From: an uncultured Bacilli bacterium
GTDB lineage: Bacteria; Bacillota_I; Bacilli_A; RF39; UBA660
Reading direction: 5' to 3'
Length of the DNA: 64,000 nt
Assembly: GCA_910580135.1 (NCBI GenBank)
Contig: CAJTXC010000001.1
Coordinates: forward strand, 2,425-66,424
Positions within the stretch are counted from its first letter, which is position 1. Each line of letters begins with the position of its first letter. Both the position numbers and the translations under genes were made by a program. Shown here piece after piece: positions 1-36,803 of this stretch. The notes below the pieces were generated by a model, which saw only the letters and a list, made by a program, of their open reading frames with translations, did no database searches and was not told the origin of the DNA.

Positions 1-78
1 TATTAAAAGAAATGCTCCTCGTATCACTACGAAGAGCATCTAAATAAACCTTAAATCTAATACCATGAAAAACACATT

Positions 79-3257: not shown

Positions 3258-3880
3258 AAACTCAGTTGTACGCAAAATGTAAAGTTTGTGATTTTGAAGC
3301 ACTTCTTAAGAAAAAAGGTTATGCTTATTTTAATAAAGGTAACTATAATCTTAATATTATAGGAGTTCGTAGTAATCAAGGTAATAAAGTTACAAATAAA
3401 TATGATGACTGTCTTGTAGTAATATATAATACAGATTCTGGTTGGAAACGTCAAATATATACTATTACTACAGAACCTGGACTTAAACTTATGAAAGCTC
3501 CAAGTAATAGTAAAGGTACTGCTATTCTTGCACCTGGTCAATATCGTGGAGCTTATAAAATAGATAAACATCGTGGTAAATATGATGCTCTTTGTCAAAG
3601 GAATAAAGTTGTAAAAGTTTATCGTGATAATAATCGTAATGAAATTTATGATTATAAACCTGAGAATATTGATACAGGAATGTTTGGTATTAATATTCAT
3701 CGTTCTAATGAGTTTTGGACTCGTACTACAATAGATGGTTATTCAGCAGGTTGTCAAGTATTTAACGACCCTAAAGAATTTAATTCTTTTATGACTCTTG
3801 TTAAAAAGTCCGCTGCTATTTTTGGTAATTGTTTTACTTATACACTTATTAATGAAGAAGATATAGATGAAATGGTCTGA
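3254..3880 (+). CDS. putative cell-wall enzyme with YkuD-like (L,D-transpeptidase fold) H...SxGC motif; endolysin candidate
   Basis: GINIHRSN...DGYSAGCQVF resembles the catalytic His ... S-x-G-C signature of the YkuD fold. ATGA start/stop overlap with the upstream gene, and two small membrane proteins follow. Confidence 0.4.
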   Translation: MKTQLYAKCKVCDFEALLKKKGYAYFNKGNYNLNIIGVRSNQGNKVTNKYDDCLVVIYNTDSGWKRQIYTITTEPGLKLMKAPSNSKGTAILAPGQYRGAYKIDKHRGKYDALCQRNKVVKVYRDNNRNEIYDYKPENIDTGMFGINIHRSNEFWTRTTIDGYSAGCQVFNDPKEFNSFMTLVKKSAAIFGNCFTYTLINEEDIDEMV

Positions 3881-4157
3881 TATAAAGAAAGGTTTAGCAG
3901 ACTGGTTTGCTAAACTATTTTTGGTAATTGGAATACTTGCTACTATTGGTGGTTTTGTTTATACTTGTTGTAGAGATAAAGAGAATACCACACCCCCCGT
4001 AGAAAGCAACAAAATAGACTCAATTATTAAAGAGAATGATAAACTTATTATTGAAGTTGAAAATTTAGATAGTATTAAAGATGCAAAAGTTATTGAAGTT
4101 AAGAGTTTGGATAATGATAGCACTCTTAGATTGTTCTATCAACTTATCGGCAAATAA
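3867..4157 (+). CDS. small membrane protein, N-terminal TM helix (holin or i-spanin-like candidate)
   Basis: The LFLVIGILATIGGFVYTCC hydrophobic segment is followed by a charged, coiled-coil-like tail. Position is directly after the putative lysin. Confidence 0.45.
   Translation: MKWSDIKKGLADWFAKLFLVIGILATIGGFVYTCCRDKENTTPPVESNKIDSIIKENDKLIIEVENLDSIKDAKVIEVKSLDNDSTLRLFYQLIGK
3992..4003 (-). repeat. iterated motif, variant (ACCCCCCGTAGA; 2 changes)
   Basis: Inside ORF 3867-4157, read as TTPPVES. Confidence 0.6.
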
Positions 4158-4461
4158 TACTGATGTAGATAGTCTGAACCTTTCTACGGGGGAGGTAGTT
4201 CAACCTAAAGATTCTGTTCTTATTTCTTATGATGATTTAAGACTTGCTAATTCTAAACTTATAGAACTTGATTATGAAAAACAAATTAATAATAACTTAC
4301 GTTGTGTTATCGCTAATGATAGTATTATTATCCGAGATTATCAAGTTCTCAATGATAGAATTAATAAAGATTGTAAGAAAGTAACTCGTCAAAGAAATAT
4401 AGCATTTGGTGGAGCAGCATTTCTATTTCTTACTACTATTATTACATTACTTATAAAATGA
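4081..4461 (+). CDS. small membrane protein, C-terminal TM helix; overlaps previous gene out of frame
   Basis: AFGGAAFLFLTTIITLLIK lies at the C-terminus. The possible lipobox-like ALLDC near the N-terminus is weak. The start is uncertain (ATG 4081 or 4114). Confidence 0.4.
   Translation: MQKLLKLRVWIMIALLDCSINLSANNTDVDSLNLSTGEVVQPKDSVLISYDDLRLANSKLIELDYEKQINNNLRCVIANDSIIIRDYQVLNDRINKDCKKVTRQRNIAFGGAAFLFLTTIITLLIK
4183..4194 (+). repeat. iterated motif, exact TCTACGGGGGAG
   Basis: Context gaaccTTTCTACGGGGGAGGTAGTTcaacc, inside ORF 4081-4461, read as LSTGEVV. Confidence 0.9.
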
Positions 4462-16986: not shown

Positions 16987-17738
16987 GTGAATTAAAACCT
17001 ATTGAACCAGAATATATTTATGTTACAATTCCAGCTGAATATATTTGTGTTTATCATCGTATTCTTGCTATGATGGCTGATTATGGTGAAGAAATGCTTA
17101 AAGATTGTAAAGCTAGTTGTACAGATAAAAATTCTGGTGTGATTGAATGTTTTAATATGTTTAATTCTGCTGTTGCAGCAAGAAAACTTGGAAAAGACAA
17201 ACTTGCTTCAGTTATTATTACATATGTTAAAGCTAAAATCAATCAAATATATAAAGGTAAAGATAATAGTACAAGTTTTGTTTTTCCTGTAGATGAAACA
17301 GGACAACTAAAAGCTTTTGTTAGTTGCGGAGAACGTCCTCGTTTTGAGATTAATGCAGACGATGGAGAACTCTATGAACATAAACTTGGAAACGGTTTTG
17401 ATGAGCATTTTCGTCTTGGTCCTGAAGATGAGTCTAAAGATGATATAAATACTAGCTCCCCCGTAGAAAGTTTGGGGCTTGATATTATTATGACTCCTCG
17501 TTATGAAGAAATAGATGGTGAAATGCGTCCTTGTGCTGATATTACAGTATTGTATAATGGTTATCCTATAAATGTTAATAATACTTCTTATCAGTATTAC
17601 TTTGATGATAAGCCTGTGATTAGGTTTAACGATGTTGTGAACCTTTCTACGGGGGTGCATAATTTCAAAGTTGTTGTTACTTATAATGGTCAAACTAAAA
17701 TAGAAAGTGTAGATAAATATTATGCAGCTACAAATTGA
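16983..17738 (+). CDS. hypothetical protein (251 aa)
   Basis: ATG ORF containing an inverted pair of the iterated motif (17456 and 17646). Confidence 0.55.
   Translation: MSELKPIEPEYIYVTIPAEYICVYHRILAMMADYGEEMLKDCKASCTDKNSGVIECFNMFNSAVAARKLGKDKLASVIITYVKAKINQIYKGKDNSTSFVFPVDETGQLKAFVSCGERPRFEINADDGELYEHKLGNGFDEHFRLGPEDESKDDINTSSPVESLGLDIIMTPRYEEIDGEMRPCADITVLYNGYPINVNNTSYQYYFDDKPVIRFNDVVNLSTGVHNFKVVVTYNGQTKIESVDKYYAATN
17456..17467 (-). repeat. iterated motif, exact (CTCCCCCGTAGA on plus strand)
   Basis: Inside ORF 16983-17738, read as SSPVESL. Confidence 0.9.
17646..17657 (+). repeat. iterated motif, variant TCTACGGGGGTG (1 change)
   Basis: Context gaaccTTTCTACGGGGGTGcat, same ORF, read as LSTGVHN. 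Confidence 0.75.
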
Positions 17739-20961: not shown

Positions 20962-23900
20962 ATGATTTATAACAAAGGTGAAGAACATATGGATAATCCT
21001 ATTCCTGTAACTGAGGAAAATTTAGGATTTAACACTCCTTGGGAAGGTCATACTTCTAAAGAGATTGAAAGTTATGTATGTTCTGTTTTTGAAAAACTAT
21101 CTGAAAGTTCATCTGCACGATTTACTCTCACTCTTGTAGATGGAAATCTTATTAACTTTGTTGATGGAGTAGATAACATTGTATTCCGATATAAAGTTAA
21201 GTATGCTTCTTCTGAAGAAGTCTTTAATACGTATCGTTTGAGCATTACAGTTAATGGTCAGATTATTCAAGATGGTTATCAGTCTTCTTCTGAAGATGAA
21301 ATTCTAACATCTCCTAATCTTGCTCAGTATCTTAATTCTACAAATGAAAGTACTGTAATAGTTCGTATTCGTGCTTACGATTTGGATGAAAACAATAATG
21401 TAATTGCACAGTCGAGTAATACTATTACATTTAACCGAGTAGTTGGTACACTTGCCCTTCAAGGTATGGTTTTTGGTGCAGTCAATCCTAATGGTATTAG
21501 ATATACTGCTGATTTTGTTCCAACTACTGCTGCTCCTGTAGCTTATCTTAGGTATAAAGTAACTCAACCTGATGGTAGTCTTGTTACATTCACAGACTCT
21601 TCTACGGGGGAGGTAAATAACTATAATGAAATTCCTGTTAGTGCTTCTGGTACTGTAACTGTTCCACTACCAGATAATCTGAGTGATGGTGTTCATACTA
21701 TAACTGCTAAATTAATTGTAGGTAAAACTCAATCTGTTGAAGGTATTTCTACTAACACAATAGTTTACAATTTCCTTACTGTTTCAGATACTGTTGCAGA
21801 TGGAACTCCATTTATTATTGTGGATAGTGTAGATAGTCCTGTTCAGAATGATTATACTCCTGTTAGATATCTTGTTTATATTAAAGGAAAAGAAGCAAGT
21901 TATACTACTCCTCTTCTTTTACAAGATTATTTTAATAATAAGTATAATACTCAAGCTATTAAGAATGTAAAAAATGGAACTATTTATACTTGGAATTATT
22001 TTGTTCCTAATCTTACATCTCTTGGAATGATTACTTGCCAACTCCGTTTTGCTCTTCCTAAAATGCAAAATGGACAAATTGTTTATAATAATAATGGTGA
22101 ACCTCAAATAGACGGTACAGCAGGCACATATAAATCTATTTCTTTTACACCTAAACCAAGTACTATTCCTTGGAATCAAATGGAAGATACATTCCATCTT
22201 TCTGTTAGAAATAAAAGTAATGACGATTATGACGTTGGTACTCTTAAAGATAATGGATATGAAATGGAATTTGAAGATTTCCAATGGAATACTTCTGGTA
22301 GTGGTTATACTCAATTAACTATTGATGGTGTTACATCTAATGTTCTTAAATTTGTAGGTAACAGTAAAGCTACTATTAAAAATTTCTTCCCGTTCTACGA
22401 TACTACTCCTTATAATGCTGCAAATTCTGTAGGTGGTGGTATTCTTGCTACAGGTCGTACTCTTAAGATTAAGTTTGCTGTATCTAATGTTTCTAATGCT
22501 GAAGCTAAAGTTATAGATTGTTATGATGATAGTAATCCTGGTATGGGTTTCTATATTACTGGTAACGGTATGTATCTTAAGTTTGTAGAAGAACTTGTAA
22601 GTAAACCTGAAGAGTATCAAACTGCATCTGGTCATAACGATAGACGTTTTAGTGAAAATAAATGTATTGAACTTTGTATTACTATTCAACCATATTGGGG
22701 TGCTGGTAATATAGAGTCTGCTCATGAAGTTCGATACTATATTAATGGTGAGCTTGCTGGTTTCCGTAAGATTGCTGCTACAACGTCTTTGAGTCAAGTT
22801 GTACCTAAAACTATATCATTTGGAGGTAAAGGTGCTATCTTGTATCTTTATGAAGTTAAATATAAGAATAAATGTATTACTCCTTTTGAAGTTCTTCAAG
22901 AATATGGTATGAGTCAAGATAGTTCTAAGGCTCTTAACAACTTCTATGAAAAGAATAGTTTTTATACTCTTCGCACTAATTCAAATGGGGAAACTTATCC
23001 TGAAATTACTCTTAAGGATGCAATTAACTATGGTAAATATTTAGCAAGCAAAGGAGTAACTGATTTTGCTGTTTTTGTTACTACTAATGATTGTAACGCT
23101 GAACGATATACTGCTAATGGTGGTAAAGCTAACACAAAAGAGTATGCTCAAGATGCTGAATCTTTATATATTTATAGATTCCGTCAAAATGAAAAAGGAG
23201 AAGGTGAAATTGACCCTGATATGACTTTCTATATCGAAGGTCATGATGATAATGAAGAACAAACTTGGTATCTAGGTGAAGAAGATGGTGAAACTAAAGG
23301 CGCTCTTCGTTTTCGCCGTCAAGGTACATCAACAGCTGATGGTACTAAAGGTAATATTCGTTGGGATGTTCGTGCAACTTGTCTTCTTCATAAGTTTAAT
23401 CCTGCTACTCAGAGATTCTTTGATGAATATACTAAGATTAAGAAAAAATGGGAAGGATTTTATATTCCTGATAAAAATGCTATTCCTTGTTTCCTTGTAA
23501 CAGCTAAAAAGAATGTTAATGAGTCTACTCATACTCGTAACGTTCCTACAGCTAAATGGTTTGAAGCTTGTTCTCGTGCTCTTGCTAAAGCAGATGAGAA
23601 ATATGAGGATATTCTTACTCCTCCTCAAAGGGCTGAATTAAAGAGTATTCAAACTGCTTATCCTAGTCTTAGTCGTTCACAGCAGATTGACAGAATTAAG
23701 ACTCGTCAAGTTATTGACGGTATTACTTCTTTAGGATTTAGAATTCAATATTCTAAAGACGCTGCTGGTAAATATCTTCCTGTTACTGACCCAACTCTTT
23801 CTACTCTTGAATGTGAATTTATAGGTCAATATGATTTGACTACTGATAAAAAGAATATGAAAATATTTGGTTTTGGTGGTCATATTGAACATAATTCAGA

Positions 23901-32594: not shown

Positions 32595-33107
32595 ATGTTT
32601 TCAGCATTAAGTCAAGGTAGTCCTATCTATATTATTGATAAGACTGATGGTCTAAAATATAAAACAGGAGAAGTTGTTGGTGTTGTTCAAGGAAATGCTT
32701 TTGGTGGTACATTTGGTACTGCATCTTTTGCTCCTAATGGCACTGTCACTCTTAAAGTTAAAGTAGACAATAACGTTATAGATTATCCTGAAGTTCCTAT
32801 CAATGGTTCTGTAATGACTTACAACAATGGTGCTACTATTGTTTGCGAAACAAAACAAGGATTAATCTCAGAGTTGGAAAATACTCTTCAACAGACTAAA
32901 CAAATACTTGCAGACCGTCCTAAATATGAACAAATTGTAAGTGATTGTGAAAGTCTTCTTAAAGAGATAAATCCTGTATTTGCTAAGGATAAAGAACGTG
33001 ATGATAGAATAAATAGTTTAGATACTAAAGTTACAAGTATGGAAGGAAAACTTGATAAAATTCTGAACGTATTGTCTTCTAATAACAATCCTAATATTAA
33101 ATTGTAA
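32595..33107 (+). CDS. hypothetical protein (170 aa), C-terminal coiled coil
   Basis: ATG ORF starting 1 nt after the previous stop. Confidence 0.55.
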   Translation: MFSALSQGSPIYIIDKTDGLKYKTGEVVGVVQGNAFGGTFGTASFAPNGTVTLKVKVDNNVIDYPEVPINGSVMTYNNGATIVCETKQGLISELENTLQQTKQILADRPKYEQIVSDCESLLKEINPVFAKDKERDDRINSLDTKVTSMEGKLDKILNVLSSNNNPNIKL

Positions 33108-33110
33108 GTT

Positions 33111-33350
33111 ATGTATTTAGTTATAAAAAGAGAAAAATCTGAGCATCTTAAACATAAAGTTCATGAACTGAAAGAACTTGCTTGTGATGTTCTTGAATGT
33201 CTTGAAGAGGCTTACTCTGAGAGTCATGAAAGTGAAAGTCGTGAACGTAGTCGTCGCGAAGATAGATATGAACCTCGTAGACGTCATGATGATTATGATG
33301 ATTATGAGCGTGATGAAGCTCGTGGTCGTGGTGGTCGAGGACGCTACTAA
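33111..33350 (+). CDS. small highly charged protein (79 aa), R/E/D-rich with RGRGGRGRY tail
   Basis: ATG ORF, followed by a perfect terminator. Confidence 0.45.
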   Translation: MYLVIKREKSEHLKHKVHELKELACDVLECLEEAYSESHESESRERSRREDRYEPRRRHDDYDDYERDEARGRGGRGRY

Positions 33351-33366
33351 TCTAATAATTCTAATG

Positions 33367-33394
33367 GGAGAGGAGAACAATCTCCTCTCCTTTT
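33367..33394 (+). terminator. rho-independent terminator
   Basis: ggagaggaga (33367-33376) is the perfect complement of tctcctctcc (33381-33390). The loop is acaa, followed by tttt. Confidence 0.8.
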
Positions 33395-33407
33395 AATTTT
33401 TAATGAT

Positions 33408-33830
33408 ATGAAAAGAGATAGTCTTGATATATACGACGATATGCCTGAAGATATGAAACATTATCTTCGTTATAATGGTAGGCATTTTAATAGAAAACTA
33501 TGTGATTTTGCAATAAGTCAAATGTCATCTACCAACCCTTCTACGGGGGAGGTGGTTCATGTAGTTAAACTTGATAAAGAAGCTGTAGATGCTCTTCTTA
33601 AAACATATCGAATTGAAATTAAGAATAATCAACTTTATGATTATGTATATGTTGCAAATATGTGTAAAGCTGATTTTCTTGGTAGAAGTGTACCTGATGA
33701 ACAACATCTCTGTTTATATATTAAAGATGTGATAGATGATGTAGACGGTTATGATGGTCTTGTGTTTAATCGTTGGTATGCTGATATGTGTAGAAGTGGT
33801 GTTGCAATAGATTGGGAAGCGATGTTATAA
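33408..33830 (+). CDS. hypothetical protein (140 aa)
   Basis: ATG ORF containing the motif copy at 33540. Confidence 0.55.
   Translation: MKRDSLDIYDDMPEDMKHYLRYNGRHFNRKLCDFAISQMSSTNPSTGEVVHVVKLDKEAVDALLKTYRIEIKNNQLYDYVYVANMCKADFLGRSVPDEQHLCLYIKDVIDDVDGYDGLVFNRWYADMCRSGVAIDWEAML
33540..33551 (+). repeat. iterated motif, exact TCTACGGGGGAG
   Basis: The full form AACCCTTCTACGGGGGAGGTGGTT spans 33534-33557, inside ORF 33408-33830, read as NPSTGEVV. Confidence 0.9.
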
Positions 33831-33868
33831 TTAGTTAGTTGTTAATAAGATTGATGTTAATTTTAAGT

Positions 33869-33908
33869 ATAGTAGTAGTAATTGTGAAATTGCTACTACT
33901 ATTGTTTT
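33869..33908 (+). terminator. rho-independent terminator
   Basis: atagtagtagtaatt (33869-33883) pairs with aattgctactactat (33888-33902): 15 bp with one wobble. The loop is gtga, followed by tgtttta. Confidence 0.7.
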
Positions 33909-33960
33909 ATATGATTATAAAGATGATGTAGATAATAGAAAAGTTAAAAATATATAAAAA

Positions 33961-33992
33961 TTTGGCTTATTTGAGAATTTTTTATAAGTTTG
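33961..33992 (+). promoter_or_regulatory. Bacteroides-type promoter (-33 TTTG, -7 TAAGTTTG)
   Basis: TTTG at 33961-33964 and TAnnTTTG at 33985-33992 with a 20-nt spacer, 43 nt upstream of ATG 34035. Confidence 0.55.
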
Positions 33993-34034
33993 TCAATAAT
34001 AATAAGAGATATATTAAAAGTAAAGCTAATCATA

Positions 34035-34352
34035 ATGGAAGAAGCAATATCTACAATAGTTAATAACACAATAAATAGTTTTGACTTTCCTTTTTGTATT
34101 ACAGTAAATATAGCTACTTATATTACAATTAAGACTATTACTGATTATAAAAAGAAAAGTAAAGTTAGTACTTGGAATAAACGTCTTATATTTCTTATTA
34201 TAAGTGCTATTATTTCTACTATTTATTGTCTTACAGGAAGTGATATTAAAACAATCTTTAATAGTTTTATTCTTGCTCCTGTGTCTTGGTCTTGGATATT
34301 CAAACCTATATGTGATAAACTTAATATTGGTTATAACGCTAAACTTAATTAA
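34035..34352 (+). CDS. small membrane protein (about 105 aa)
   Basis: The track start 33990 is TTG inside the -7 box, so ATG 34035 (MEEAIST) is preferred. It has two to three hydrophobic helices and a very AT-rich codon set. Confidence 0.5.
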   Translation: MEEAISTIVNNTINSFDFPFCITVNIATYITIKTITDYKKKSKVSTWNKRLIFLIISAIISTIYCLTGSDIKTIFNSFILAPVSWSWIFKPICDKLNIGYNAKLN

Positions 34353-34499
34353 AATATTAATGTTAAGTTATTCCATATATTTTTATTCGGTTTCAGCCAG
34401 TCTAATTTAATAGTGATTAAGACATTAGACAATAATACAAAATGGAAATTAGGCTATCCCCTGCGCGTCAGAGAGCCTATCACATATTAAATAAATGCG

Positions 34500-34511
34500 C
34501 TCCCCCGTAGA
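34500..34511 (-). repeat. iterated motif, exact (CTCCCCCGTAGA), intergenic
   Basis: Context gcgCTCCCCCGTAGAAAGGTTGtg. A partner half-site CGGGGGAG lies at 34587-34594. Confidence 0.9.
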
Positions 34512-34594
34512 AAGGTTGTGAAACTTAATTGTTATTATTAAGGTGTTAGTATAATAATTAGTAAGTGTACTATTAATCAACCTAATCGGGGGAG
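34500..34594. other. intergenic imperfect inverted repeat / candidate structured RNA containing the iterated motif
   Basis: CTCCCCCG (34500-34507) pairs with CGGGGGAG (34587-34594). AGGTTG (34513-34518) pairs with CAACCT (34578-34583). An inner stem is cttaat/attaag. Confidence 0.45.
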
Positions 34595-34625
34595 TGTTCT
34601 TAATAATAAAATCAATAGTAAATGT

Positions 34626-35168
34626 ATGAATAAATTTAATTTTGGAGTAGGAACTCCAACAAAAGGAATTATAGATAGTTCTTTTGTTCCTATAAAATAT
34701 AATAATAATTATAAAATAAATAATAAAGGAGTCATAATAAATAAGAATAATATTGTTTGTAAACCTTTTGTTAATAATAGTGGTTATTATTGTATTGGAC
34801 TATGGGAAAACAATGTCAAAACTACTTATTGTGTTCATAAACTTGTTGCTGAACATTTTATGAATAATTACGATGATAGTTTAGATATAGACCATATAGA
34901 TAATAATAAATTAAATAATGATATAAATAATTTACAATTAATAACTCATAGAGAAAATTGTAAGAAAAGACTAACTCCAAATATTTATAATGTTACTTTT
35001 GAAGGAAATATTATAAAACAATATAAATCAATAAGAGAAGCAGCAAACGATTTACATATAGGATATAACGGTTTAAGAGAATTACTTTCTAATATTAATG
35101 ATGAAAGTGTTATAATTAAAGTTTATAGTAAAATAAATAAAACTTATTTATATTTTAAGAGATATTAA
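34626..35168 (+). CDS. HNH homing endonuclease (free-standing)
   Basis: The order NUMOD4-like N-terminus, YCVHKLVAEHF, DIDHIDNNKLNNDINNLQLITHRENC (H-N-H), then the C-terminal SIREAANDLHI helix-turn-helix module is typical of phage HNH_3-type endonucleases. Composition is extremely AT-rich. Confidence 0.7.
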   Translation: MNKFNFGVGTPTKGIIDSSFVPIKYNNNYKINNKGVIINKNNIVCKPFVNNSGYYCIGLWENNVKTTYCVHKLVAEHFMNNYDDSLDIDHIDNNKLNNDINNLQLITHRENCKKRLTPNIYNVTFEGNIIKQYKSIREAANDLHIGYNGLRELLSNINDESVIIKVYSKINKTYLYFKRY

Positions 35169-35170
35169 TT

Positions 35171-35857
35171 ATGGCGTCAATATCAATGTTAGTGTCGGAA
35201 TTTGCACATTCTCTAAAAAGTCCTAATAATAAAGCTCTCAGAGAAAATATTAAACTTCTTATAGTTCATACACGTAACGAGATTATTCGTAGAAGTTATG
35301 AAAATCACGGTTATGTAGATAAAGGTCTTGTTCAAAGATTTAAAGTTAGTCTTACTGATGTTTATGATGGAGAGATAACTCTCCCAGAAGGTTGTGAGGA
35401 TATAGATATTACAAAGATTAAGCGTAGTCTTCAAAAAGTTCCTACTCCTGTTAGACTTACAAATAATCTTCCTTTTGATAGAATTAGTTCTGTAGGATAT
35501 AGAACATCAAGAGAATTTCCTTTTATTAAGGAAACTACTGCTCGTTTTAGAAGTTCTGTTCCTGGACTTTGTGGTATGCCTTGTTACGATTATATAAATG
35601 GTTATATTTATATATTTCCTACAGATAATAAAACTTTTGATATTAATCAAATAGTTATAGAGTCTGCTTTTGAACATCCTACTGAAATTCAAATCGCTAA
35701 TAACGAAGTTGATAGTATGGATGTTCTTATGGATGAAAATGAATTTCTTTTGTCTGAAGATATGATTGGACAACTTAAAGAAATCATATATAAGCGAGAT
35801 TTACTTAGTACTATTCGTGAAACTAATGAAATTCCAGATACTGTAAAGTTTAATTAA
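35171..35857 (+). CDS. hypothetical virion protein (228 aa)
   Basis: ATG ORF. Confidence 0.55.
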   Translation: MASISMLVSEFAHSLKSPNNKALRENIKLLIVHTRNEIIRRSYENHGYVDKGLVQRFKVSLTDVYDGEITLPEGCEDIDITKIKRSLQKVPTPVRLTNNLPFDRISSVGYRTSREFPFIKETTARFRSSVPGLCGMPCYDYINGYIYIFPTDNKTFDINQIVIESAFEHPTEIQIANNEVDSMDVLMDENEFLLSEDMIGQLKEIIYKRDLLSTIRETNEIPDTVKFN

Positions 35858-35858
35858 T

Positions 35859-36803
35859 ATGGCAATTAAAGAAATACCTACTAACTTTAGAGTATATTAT
35901 AAATTGTTTATTGAAGACAATAAACAAAAACTTGAAGATGCTCTTAAACAAAAAGAAGATTTAGAAGAATCTGTTAGAGTTAAGCATATTACTATTTCTG
36001 CATGGAAAGATATTTATGAAACCCAGTTTAATATAAAATTAGATGATTATATAGAGTTTAAAAGAAATACATATATTACAGGAAGTTTTTATAGAATGGC
36101 TAAAGGTCTACTTATAAATAAACAAAATAATTATGAACTTATAGCTGATTCTTTTAATCTTTTCGATTTAGCTGATACTCAAAAACAATTAGATAATTGT
36201 ATTCAACGTATCACCTTTTATAAGAAATGTATCAAACTAACTCTTAAAGAATATACTGAAATTCTTAGAGTTTATTATACTGAAGTTCATAAGAAACTTA
36301 TTCTTGAAGGACAAGGATATGCTTTTAGTAATGGTATAGGTTGGATTTGTGTTAATCGTTGTCTTTTTGATAAACGACATCCAATGCTTGATTATGCTGC
36401 TACTAAAAAGAAAGAGAAAGAACTTAGAGAAAAAGGTGAACGTATTTATGATAAAGAAGAAGCTGAATGGTGTGCTCGTAATGGATTAGAATACGATGGT
36501 AAAGATAAAAGAGTATTTGTTTGCAATGAATATTGTTATCAAATTCCTCTTATAGATTGTAAACTTCCAGGTAGTAATCATCTTAAATTAGAAATAGGGG
36601 ATTATAGACATAGAAGTTTGCGTGGAAAGAGTAATGATGAAATTATAGAAATGTGTAATAGTGATACAAAGAAAATTTGTGAACTTCCATTAGATTTAAA
36701 AACTAAAGTTACTCTTTGTGACAAAGCTGATAAAATTTTATATACTAAATTTATAAGAAATGAAAATCAAAAACCAATTACCTTTAGCAAGACTAATAGG
36801 TAA
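35859..36803 (+). CDS. hypothetical virion protein (314 aa)
   Basis: ATG ORF. Confidence 0.55.
   Translation: MAIKEIPTNFRVYYKLFIEDNKQKLEDALKQKEDLEESVRVKHITISAWKDIYETQFNIKLDDYIEFKRNTYITGSFYRMAKGLLINKQNNYELIADSFNLFDLADTQKQLDNCIQRITFYKKCIKLTLKEYTEILRVYYTEVHKKLILEGQGYAFSNGIGWICVNRCLFDKRHPMLDYAATKKKEKELREKGERIYDKEEAEWCARNGLEYDGKDKRVFVCNEYCYQIPLIDCKLPGSNHLKLEIGDYRHRSLRGKSNDEIIEMCNSDTKKICELPLDLKTKVTLCDKADKILYTKFIRNENQKPITFSKTNR

Follow-up and report, generated by a model that had tools for sequence, protein, structure and literature searches.

The stretch of DNA analysed here, a 64 kb window of contig CAJTXC010000001.1, is AT-rich (30.8% GC) and belongs to a crAss-like phage of the family Intestiviridae, subfamily Obtuvirinae, for which the nearest INPHARED record is MH552500 (Wotdevirus murinus; ~79% nucleotide identity across part of the region). 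Its plus strand carries all of the genes from 500 to 53894, with a giant open reading frame (ORF) running on to the end of the window. We examined the spacer between the gene for a 105-amino-acid protein and the ORF for a free-standing HNH endonuclease, which is followed by the gene for tail ring protein 2, and in particular a long hairpin in this spacer, one arm of which is a copy of a short motif that recurs through the genome (Table 1). For comparison, 31 related loci (designated by L-numbers, including L130-L160) were fetched via the ring protein; the closest of these, L130-L132, display 86-88% protein identity.

The hairpin in the spacer and its relatives

The hairpin has an outer stem of 11 bp, seven of them G-C pairs, formed by 34497-34507 with 34587-34597, followed by a 5 × 3 internal loop, a 6 bp AGGTTG/CAACCT stem (34513-34518 with 34578-34583) and an apical region of 59 nucleotides (nt). 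A preliminary description of this stretch, made from the sequence letters, had proposed a long imperfect inverted repeat here, and every position that it gave was found to be correct, including those of CTCCCCCG (34500-34507) and CGGGGGAG (34587-34594). Folding of the RNA from 34490 to 34612 gave a value of -35.7 kcal/mol compared with -18.5 ± 3.0 kcal/mol for shuffled sequences (z = -5.7), and none of 200 shuffles folded as well. The 5' arm is indeed an exact copy of the iterated motif, as had also been claimed, and is kept in MH552500 and in L130-L133. The 3' arm is an inverted but degenerate copy, in which TAAT stands where the motif has TTCTAC, so that 9 of the 13 core positions are paired in the window as against 11-13 in most relatives. 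Other details of the preliminary description fared less well. The cttaat/attaag inner stem is not that of the minimum-energy fold, and it is lost in the closest relatives, where ATAATA stands at that point. GC-rich patches are present, but the enrichment is modest (0.41 in 34450-34549 compared with 0.31 for the whole window), and although the aggct/agcct stem of the first patch (34451-34455 with 34474-34478) is present here, aligned relatives do not conserve its pairing.

At the equivalent place upstream of the ring gene, a hairpin is found in at least 17 of the 31 relatives, usually followed by a T-run. In 16 relatives, as in the window, it is built from a motif and an inverted motif, with the arms 36-161 nt apart. 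Stems in the relatives measure 13-25 bp and apical regions 20 to ~170 nt, and the ring ATG lies 24-55 nt past the end of the 3' arm, the exception being L159 (363 nt). In L134 the spacer is nearly all hairpin, with ~20 nt between the preceding stop codon and the hairpin and 24 nt between the hairpin and the ATG. When eight relatives with elements of similar size were folded together, the consensus recovered 18 pairs of the outer helix. To assess covariation, the arms from 16 sequences were aligned without gaps and compared with 500 shuffles. The proportion of paired cells was 74.7% (69.1 ± 1.4% when shuffled) and the covariation score 0.257 (0.175 when shuffled), neither value being reached in any shuffle, and sliding the arms out of register left only 47-54% paired. 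Changes on both sides were seen in 11 of the 21 pairs, for example C-G to A-U or U-A at the base of the helix, G-C to A-U within GTAG/CTAC, and C-G to G-C in L134. The one-sided changes in the core helix are of the U·G type, which are wobbles on the plus (sense) strand and C·A mismatches on the opposite strand, indicating that selection acts on the sense transcript.

More distant relatives carry a hairpin at the equivalent place with unlike stems, namely AAGACUUCUUUAAAAGC... in L155 and L157, ACGCUCCACAGAAG... in L156 and ACCCUAGUAGAGA... in L160, with z-scores of -2.3 to -6.6. As the stem sequences differ and the structure is kept, the conserved feature is a helix at this position. Individual z-scores were -6.6 (L155), -4.2 (L156), -4.5 (L154), -5.8 (L152) and -3.4 (L142). 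These data clearly show that the spacer holds a stable hairpin, that it is conserved among the relatives and that its pairs covary, in agreement with the structured RNA suggested previously. An Rfam scan, which had been proposed as a means of follow-up, matched no family to the spacer: with Rfam 15 at gathering and permissive thresholds, the best score in 34300-34700 was 18.7 bits, against a gathering value of 56.1, and lay inside the HNH ORF. The same scan of 11 related loci found nothing at the ring-gene hairpin site, and neither transfer RNA (tRNA) nor transfer-messenger RNA was detected in the window.

Table 1. Features of the spacer, its neighbouring genes and the motif sites of the window
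Feature	Position	Strand	Basis or remark
DUF7841 gene	33408-33830	+	ORF list, Pfam
Nearest upstream motif copy, in the DUF7841 gene, encoding NPSTGEV	33533-33551	-	Complementary to the hairpin 5' arm over 18/19 nt
105-amino-acid gene	34035-34352	+	ORF list
Intergenic spacer, 273 nt, from stop of 105-amino-acid gene to ATG of HNH ORF	34353-34625	+	ORF list; end-to-end alignment with L130-L132, L133 and MH552500
Weak promoter candidate TATTTTTA	34378-34385	+	One mismatch from Bacteroidetes -7 box
First GC patch with TAGGCT/AGCCTA stem	34450-34479	+	Pairing not conserved in relatives
Long hairpin	34497-34597	+	RNA fold; consensus fold of 8 relatives; covariation on 16 relatives
Hairpin 5' arm, perfect motif copy CTCCCCCGTAGAAAGGTTG, sense	34500-34518	+	Sole zero-mismatch match in window
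Hairpin 3' arm, degenerate inverted motif copy (CAACCTAATCGGGGGAG on + strand)	34578-34594	-	
T/A-rich tail and translation leader TCTTAATAATAAAATCAATAGTAAATGT	34598-34625	+	Homologous to L130-L132 tail entering ring-gene ATG
HNH endonuclease ORF, free-standing, 180 amino acids	34626-35168	+	Pfam HNH_3; junction alignments
Tail ring protein 2 gene (earlier annotation 'IHF-like')	35171-35857	+	Pfam PF25702, E = 1.2e-53
Motif CTCCCCCGTAG(A/G)A, 15 sites	1088, 4184, 10167, 17647, 21602, 33541, 42368, 50587, 56666	-	
The same motif, remaining sites	3994, 17458, 34502, 42883, 52825, 59632	+	

The HNH gene as an independent insertion

The HNH ORF matches Pfam PF13392 (HNH_3) with E = 1.6e-09 and 37.6 bits (cut-off 24.8) and, with 19.9 bits, lies under the NUMOD1 cut-off of 22.8. 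Its ATG stands 29 nt from the 3' end of the hairpin, and the preliminary description had proposed a possible link between the two, with the hairpin as recognition site of the endonuclease or as part of the mobile cassette that carried it. This physical adjacency is all that speaks for such a link. In L130-L132, which lack the HNH ORF, the homology extends from end to end of the spacer, through the hairpin and the tail TTAATAATAAAAT(C/T)(A/G)AT...ATG, and the same ATG that starts the HNH ORF in the window starts the ring protein (ATGGCTAGTATAGCA) in these relatives. The empty junction of the L130 type thus has AAAATTGATTAAGAT directly followed by ATGGCTAGTATAGCA, the L130 sequence reading ...AAAATTGATTAAGATATGGCTAGTATAGCAATGCTT..., and in the window the ring gene begins two bases past the HNH stop. 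The inserted DNA, from ~34613-34626 to 35170, is essentially the ORF alone. MH552500 is likewise without HNH and has the 105-amino-acid gene, a 233 nt spacer with a motif at the equivalent spot, and then the ring-protein gene directly.

No equivalent of the HNH ORF was found at this locus in any of the 31 relatives (0/31), and the hairpin with its tail is carried by many loci without it (L130-L135, L141, L142, L144-L146, L149, L152 and L153), which is not the distribution of a cassette in which the hairpin occurs only alongside HNH. The HNH gene is therefore a later, independent and ORF-precise insertion between the leader and the ring start codon. The comparison with HNH-less relatives, which the preliminary description had recommended, defines the boundaries of the insertion and separates the hairpin from the presence of HNH, and the motif is kept in those relatives. 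The ORF itself has the marks of a homing endonuclease, i.e. an HNH catalytic domain, and presence or absence with precise boundaries in otherwise collinear relatives. In addition, positions 35171-35200 are the most diverged 30 nt window of the ring gene relative to the HNH-less alleles (0.67 identity compared with 0.85 overall), the changes in these first 30 nt being mostly synonymous, with one amino-acid change. This divergence is consistent with the pattern expected of a homing site that is immune to cleavage, and it makes the leader/ring-start junction a likelier target for the predicted endonuclease than the motif. Were the motif the target, the phage would expose its own genome to cleavage at the 14 other copies. 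We therefore regard the hairpin as recognition site or cassette component of HNH as a largely refuted reading, and as very improbable. An association of HNH relatives with motif copies elsewhere was also considered and was dropped, as no close HNH homologue was found in IMG/VR or INPHARED.

A motif repeated across Intestiviridae genomes

The core of the motif, CCCCCGTAG(A/G)A (9-13 nt), is present in 15 copies in the window, 13 of which lie inside ORFs. The 19-mer corresponding to the hairpin 5' arm gave eight matches with three mismatches or fewer, compared with none in 100 shuffles, and all 16 CCCCCG hexamers of the window fall within motif copies or the hairpin 3' arm. MH552500 and L130-L138 retain the copy in the DUF7841 gene, where it precedes the ring gene by ~1 kb. 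MH552500 has 21 copies, cr271_1 20, cr8_1 28 and the prototypical crAssphage (BK010471) 31, giving a range of 15-31 across the Intestiviridae. The two strands carry roughly the same number of copies, in alternating orientation along the genome; neighbours with the same orientation make up 3/14, 5/20, 4/19, 5/27 and 9/30 in five genomes (the last two counted by eye). Alternation and even spacing would be expected were each strand to require a regularly spaced set of sites for itself.

Identity at the 13 sites common to the window and MH552500 is 97% in the core and ~50% in the flanks, and in cr271_1 and cr8_1 copies stand at orthologous positions and in orthologous orientation though the flanking proteins are 29-60% identical. 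By these alignments, the motif is more conserved than the proteins containing it, and it has changed in concert between lineages. The lineage forms are CTCCCCCGTAGAA, CCGCCCCGTAAAA and ACCCCCCGTAGAGGA, the variant of cr8_1 being AGCC[G/C]CCCCGTAAAAGGTATG (also given as CC[G/C]CCCCGTAAAAGG) and that of the prototypical crAssphage GAC[C/T]CCCCGT[A/G]GAGGATGGA (in shorter form AC[C/T]CCCCGT[A/G]GAGGATGGA). Concerted change at fixed sites points to a common co-evolving reader, or to gene conversion among the copies. In cr8_1 (NC_055877, L163 plus L164), we also observed that sense copies have CCGCCCC in 11 of 12 cases and antisense copies CCCCCCC in 10 of 13; two of the three antisense exceptions are arms of local hairpins, and at the variable position the coding strand has G in both classes.

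Antisense copies in the window encode S-T-G-E (seven of eight) or F-Y-G-G-G and sense copies (S/P)-P-V-E, with codons that are rare for the genome. A motif at the level of the peptide was rejected, since one and the same DNA sequence is translated in three or more frames (STGE, FYGGG, SPVE and PPRRK) with rare GC-rich codons, which indicates selection on nucleotides. Copies arise by substitution, as illustrated by the ring gene, which reads YPPRRKT in L154, L155 and L157 where the window has FPTDNKT, with no indel. Two convergent pairs, 3992-4194 and 17456-17657, with their copies ~190 bp apart, lie in coding sequence and are kept in MH552500 (47832/48022 and 60899/61088). The first of these spans the 77 nt overlap of two plus-strand ORFs in different frames, 3867-4157 (96 amino acids, N-terminal membrane helix) and 4081-4461 (126 amino acids, C-terminal helix), which come directly after a putative peptidoglycan-binding lysis gene and possibly represent a nested pair of the spanin type or a site of frameshifting. 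An intergenic hairpin at 1085-1124, right after the stop of ORF 500-1075, pairs CTACGGGGGAG with CTCTCGTAG, with three G·U wobbles on the plus strand, and has an orthologue in cr271_1 (3525/3552).

Several explanations of the motif were tried and rejected. A shufflon or invertible segment was discarded because inversion in silico puts stop codons in the pairs 17456/17657, 3992/4194 and 42360/42899; for the 50579/52841 segment, the minus frames hold 24-108 stops. Miniature inverted-repeat transposable elements or other in-frame palindromic insertions do not account for the copies, as the interiors of the two 190 bp pairs are unrelated and the ring-gene copies arose without an indel; nor does an origin in tRNA, as the tRNAs of related phages are unlike the motif. 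A host Chi-like or uptake-like motif was discounted likewise: a search of 185,579 species genomes gave, among the matches listed, scattered single matches and no bacterial enrichment. Pair-specific long-range pairing was rejected because adjacent sense and antisense copies are no more complementary than random pairs, and an obligatory hairpin after the motif because only 13 of 84 copies have one, two of these being clear terminators. In the literature searched, neither the motif sequences in a phage context nor a description of the motif was found. None of the known phage signals (promoter, Chi, uptake sequence, pac or nick site) fits all of its properties, and the motif family may be new.

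Two Rfam matches were encountered away from the spacer. Window positions 3-75 (minus strand) match Rfam RF04319 (FopS, paralogous Bacteroides small RNAs) with 60.5 bits against a gathering value of 56 (local E = 1.4e-08), the first 31 nt (GUGUUUUUCAUGGUAUUAGAUUUAAGGUU...) being exactly the family consensus and a terminator hairpin coming next; a mimic, in a crAss-like phage, of a host small-RNA family tied to RbpB and the control of polysaccharide utilization would deserve a separate look. A seed like that of FopS was also considered in L141 and L144, within their long loops, and was not significant. In the related crAss-like contig L154, positions 710-800, ~1.7 kb upstream of the ring gene, match the RT-17 RNA (RF03020) with 43 bits against a gathering value of 40.4.

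Possible roles of the hairpin and comparison with known systems

Given its position and structure, the reading that we rank first, and hold to be evenly balanced between right and wrong, is that the hairpin is an intercistronic Rho-independent terminator or attenuator within the long rightward block of late genes. It would sit after the 105-amino-acid gene and ~25-55 nt before the tail ring-protein gene, with a GC-rich stem built from one sense and one inverted copy of the family's 13-19 nt motif. Transcripts arriving from upstream would fold the hairpin and some fraction would terminate there, and this partial termination would fix the relative amounts of late products from the genes before and after it. 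The window's stem, interrupted by the internal loop, and its U-run (UGUUCUU) are weaker than those of HNH-less relatives, which would make it easier for transcription to read through into HNH and the ring gene. Both the termination activity and attenuation as its purpose are inferred from the following features. The stem is stable and GC-rich, as in intrinsic terminators, and in relatives the 3' arm is followed by T-runs such as TATTTTT, TCTTTTT, CTTTATTTT, CTTTCTTTT and CTTTT, with eight Ts in L155, TTTTCTT in L156 and TTTTTT in L160; 4-8 U residues fall within the first 10 nt after the stem in L130, L131, L133, L135, L142, L145, L155, L156 and L160. Canonical intrinsic terminators occur at 33366-33391 and 33869-33902, after a 79-amino-acid gene and the DUF7841 gene respectively, with stems of 11 and 15 bp, 4 nt loops and T-runs, and three terminator-like sites fall within 33000-36000 where 0.4 would be expected. 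As terminators follow both of the preceding small genes, one after the 105-amino-acid gene fits the local pattern. Elsewhere, in MH552500 (12769) and cr271_1 (66209), a motif copy immediately follows the stop of the giant ORF and its GTAGAAG half serves as 5' arm in a textbook terminator (14-15 bp stem, 4 nt loop and T-rich tail). The spacer of L134, taken up almost wholly by the hairpin and with little room for a promoter, also speaks for a terminator.

A number of observations weigh against termination. The U-run of the window is weak (TGTTCTT; UGUUCUUAAU), as are those of L141, L144, L146, L152 and L153. The apical region, 59 nt here and ~170 nt in L141 and L149, is atypical of intrinsic terminators, the loop is not of the short kind (about 3-10 nt), and a simple terminator scan does not call the hairpin. 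In prototypical crAssphage, the motif hairpin at 22901/22930 has no U-run and its wobble, judged by eye, is on the antisense strand. MH552500 and L136-L138 keep the sense motif at the site without a 3' arm, so that the most conserved feature here is the motif, not the hairpin. In addition, the ring ATG is only ~25-30 nt away from the hairpin, so that expression of the ring gene would depend on read-through or on a promoter located within or before the hairpin. The consensus of the Bacteroidetes -7 promoter box is TAnnTTTG, and a promoter upstream within the spacer is possible, weakly supported by the candidate in Table 1 and by a box CATATATTTTT(A/G)TT at a conserved position in MH552500 and L136-L138. 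Middle promoters have been published upstream of the homologous 'IHF-like' gene of another crAss subfamily; these were set aside as a match for the present locus, being from that other subfamily and with the promoter sequence absent from the text.

The same structural conservation, covariation and sense-strand wobbles would serve an element of RNA processing or stability equally well, either a double-stranded cleavage site for an RNase III-like enzyme, as between T7 genes, or a protective hairpin that ends the upstream message at its 3' end or the ring-gene message at its 5' end and sets message half-lives. The long stems (13-25 bp) and large apical regions are nearer to processing sites than to terminators, the U-runs are weak in some relatives, and a ring start only ~28 nt downstream would suit a processed 5' leader. 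This is a serious rival, which we nevertheless consider unlikely, because in most relatives a clear U-run comes right after the stem and a processing site needs none; nor was an internal-loop signature of the RNase III type tested for or seen. Somewhat less likely again is that the functional unit is the DNA motif, the hairpin being two inverted sites for a phage-encoded factor and the RNA helix a by-product; such a factor would recognize all 15-31 copies and act in replication priming, nicking, recombination or genome organization. The conservation of position, orientation and core across genera against diverged flanks, the substitution of copies into ORFs at a cost in amino acids, the near-equal and alternating orientations and the concerted lineage forms would all be expected of such sites, as would the single unpaired motif that MH552500 and L136-L138 keep here. 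The one-sided sense-strand G·U changes and the helices of unrelated sequence in distant relatives argue, however, for selection on the RNA helix as such at this locus, and no candidate binding protein was identified.

A small regulatory RNA, an idea of the preliminary description, would be transcribed from a start within the spacer, end at the hairpin and use the arm CUCCCCCGUAGAAAGGUUG to pair with antisense-oriented motif copies in late mRNAs; this appears improbable to us. The 5' arm has the motif's consensus sequence and could pair with the nine copies that read UUCUACGGGGGAG in plus-strand mRNAs, a weak -7-box-like element lies at 34378, and the phage has at least one small-RNA-like gene elsewhere (the FopS-like match). 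In contrast, the arm is sequestered in the helix, the 3' arm of the window is degenerate, so that sense copies have no matching antisense, and adjacent or specific copies show no extra complementarity; nor is there an Rfam match, room for a promoter in L134, or a hairpin in MH552500 and L136-L138. Our order of preference is thus terminator or attenuator, processing or stability element, paired DNA sites, trans-acting small RNA and, last, HNH site or cassette.

On a wider scale, we tentatively suggest, while holding it rather less likely than the terminator reading, that the hairpin is one node of a cis-element system shared by the Intestiviridae, prototypical crAssphage included, in which 15-31 copies of a lineage-specific GC-rich 13-25-mer occupy orthologous sites and evolve in concert. 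If true, this would imply a co-evolving trans-acting reader, protein or RNA, that acts throughout the genome in replication, recombination, transcription punctuation or RNA fate, and local inverted pairs would have been recruited as terminator-like hairpins. The spacer element alone is of an ordinary kind, a conserved intercistronic hairpin with a homing-endonuclease ORF beside it, and sorting the one from the other removes a tempting but wrong link. The motif merits a study of its own: the family is the most abundant of the human gut phages, and its genera keep the motif at the same ~15-31 sites without a change of orientation. Finding the reader of the motif would give a new handle on replication or gene expression in crAss-like phages.

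Several known systems offer a comparison. The DNA uptake sequences (DUS) of Neisseria and the uptake signal sequences (USS) of Haemophilus are motifs of ~10-13 nt that occur genome-wide on both strands, also in ORFs by substitution, and whose inverted pairs behind genes double as terminator hairpins. In all of these respects, they resemble the phage motif. They are, however, bacterial and read by the competence machinery, whereas here the genome is that of a lytic phage and bacterial enrichment is lacking among the matches listed; the phage copies are also positionally conserved across genera, with alternating orientation, and an uptake role is not conceivable. Promoters of the T7 group comprise ~20 copies of a phage-specific motif of ~20 nt that co-evolve with the RNA polymerase and all point along the genes. 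Like the phage motif, they keep their positions in relatives, lie in part inside upstream ORFs and change sequence in concert between lineages, but about half of the motif copies are antisense and their orientation alternates.

The adjacent ORF, a predicted endonuclease, resembles the free-standing HNH homing endonucleases of phages (T4 mob, I-HmuI-like) in its HNH_3 domain, weak NUMOD1 and AT-richness, in being present or absent among close relatives, and in its ORF-precise intergenic insertion with use of the neighbouring gene's leader; it differs in having no close homologue in IMG/VR or INPHARED. Compared with the intrinsic terminators found between phage late genes, the hairpin has a loop of 59-170 nt rather than 3-8 nt, a weak U-run in the window, the next start codon ~28 nt away, and a stem built from a motif that each genome uses 15-31 times, for the most part not in terminators. 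It shares with them a GC-rich base of the stem that, in most relatives, leads directly into a U-run, a site after a stop codon, a structure conserved as the sequence drifts, and canonical terminators at the neighbouring small genes.

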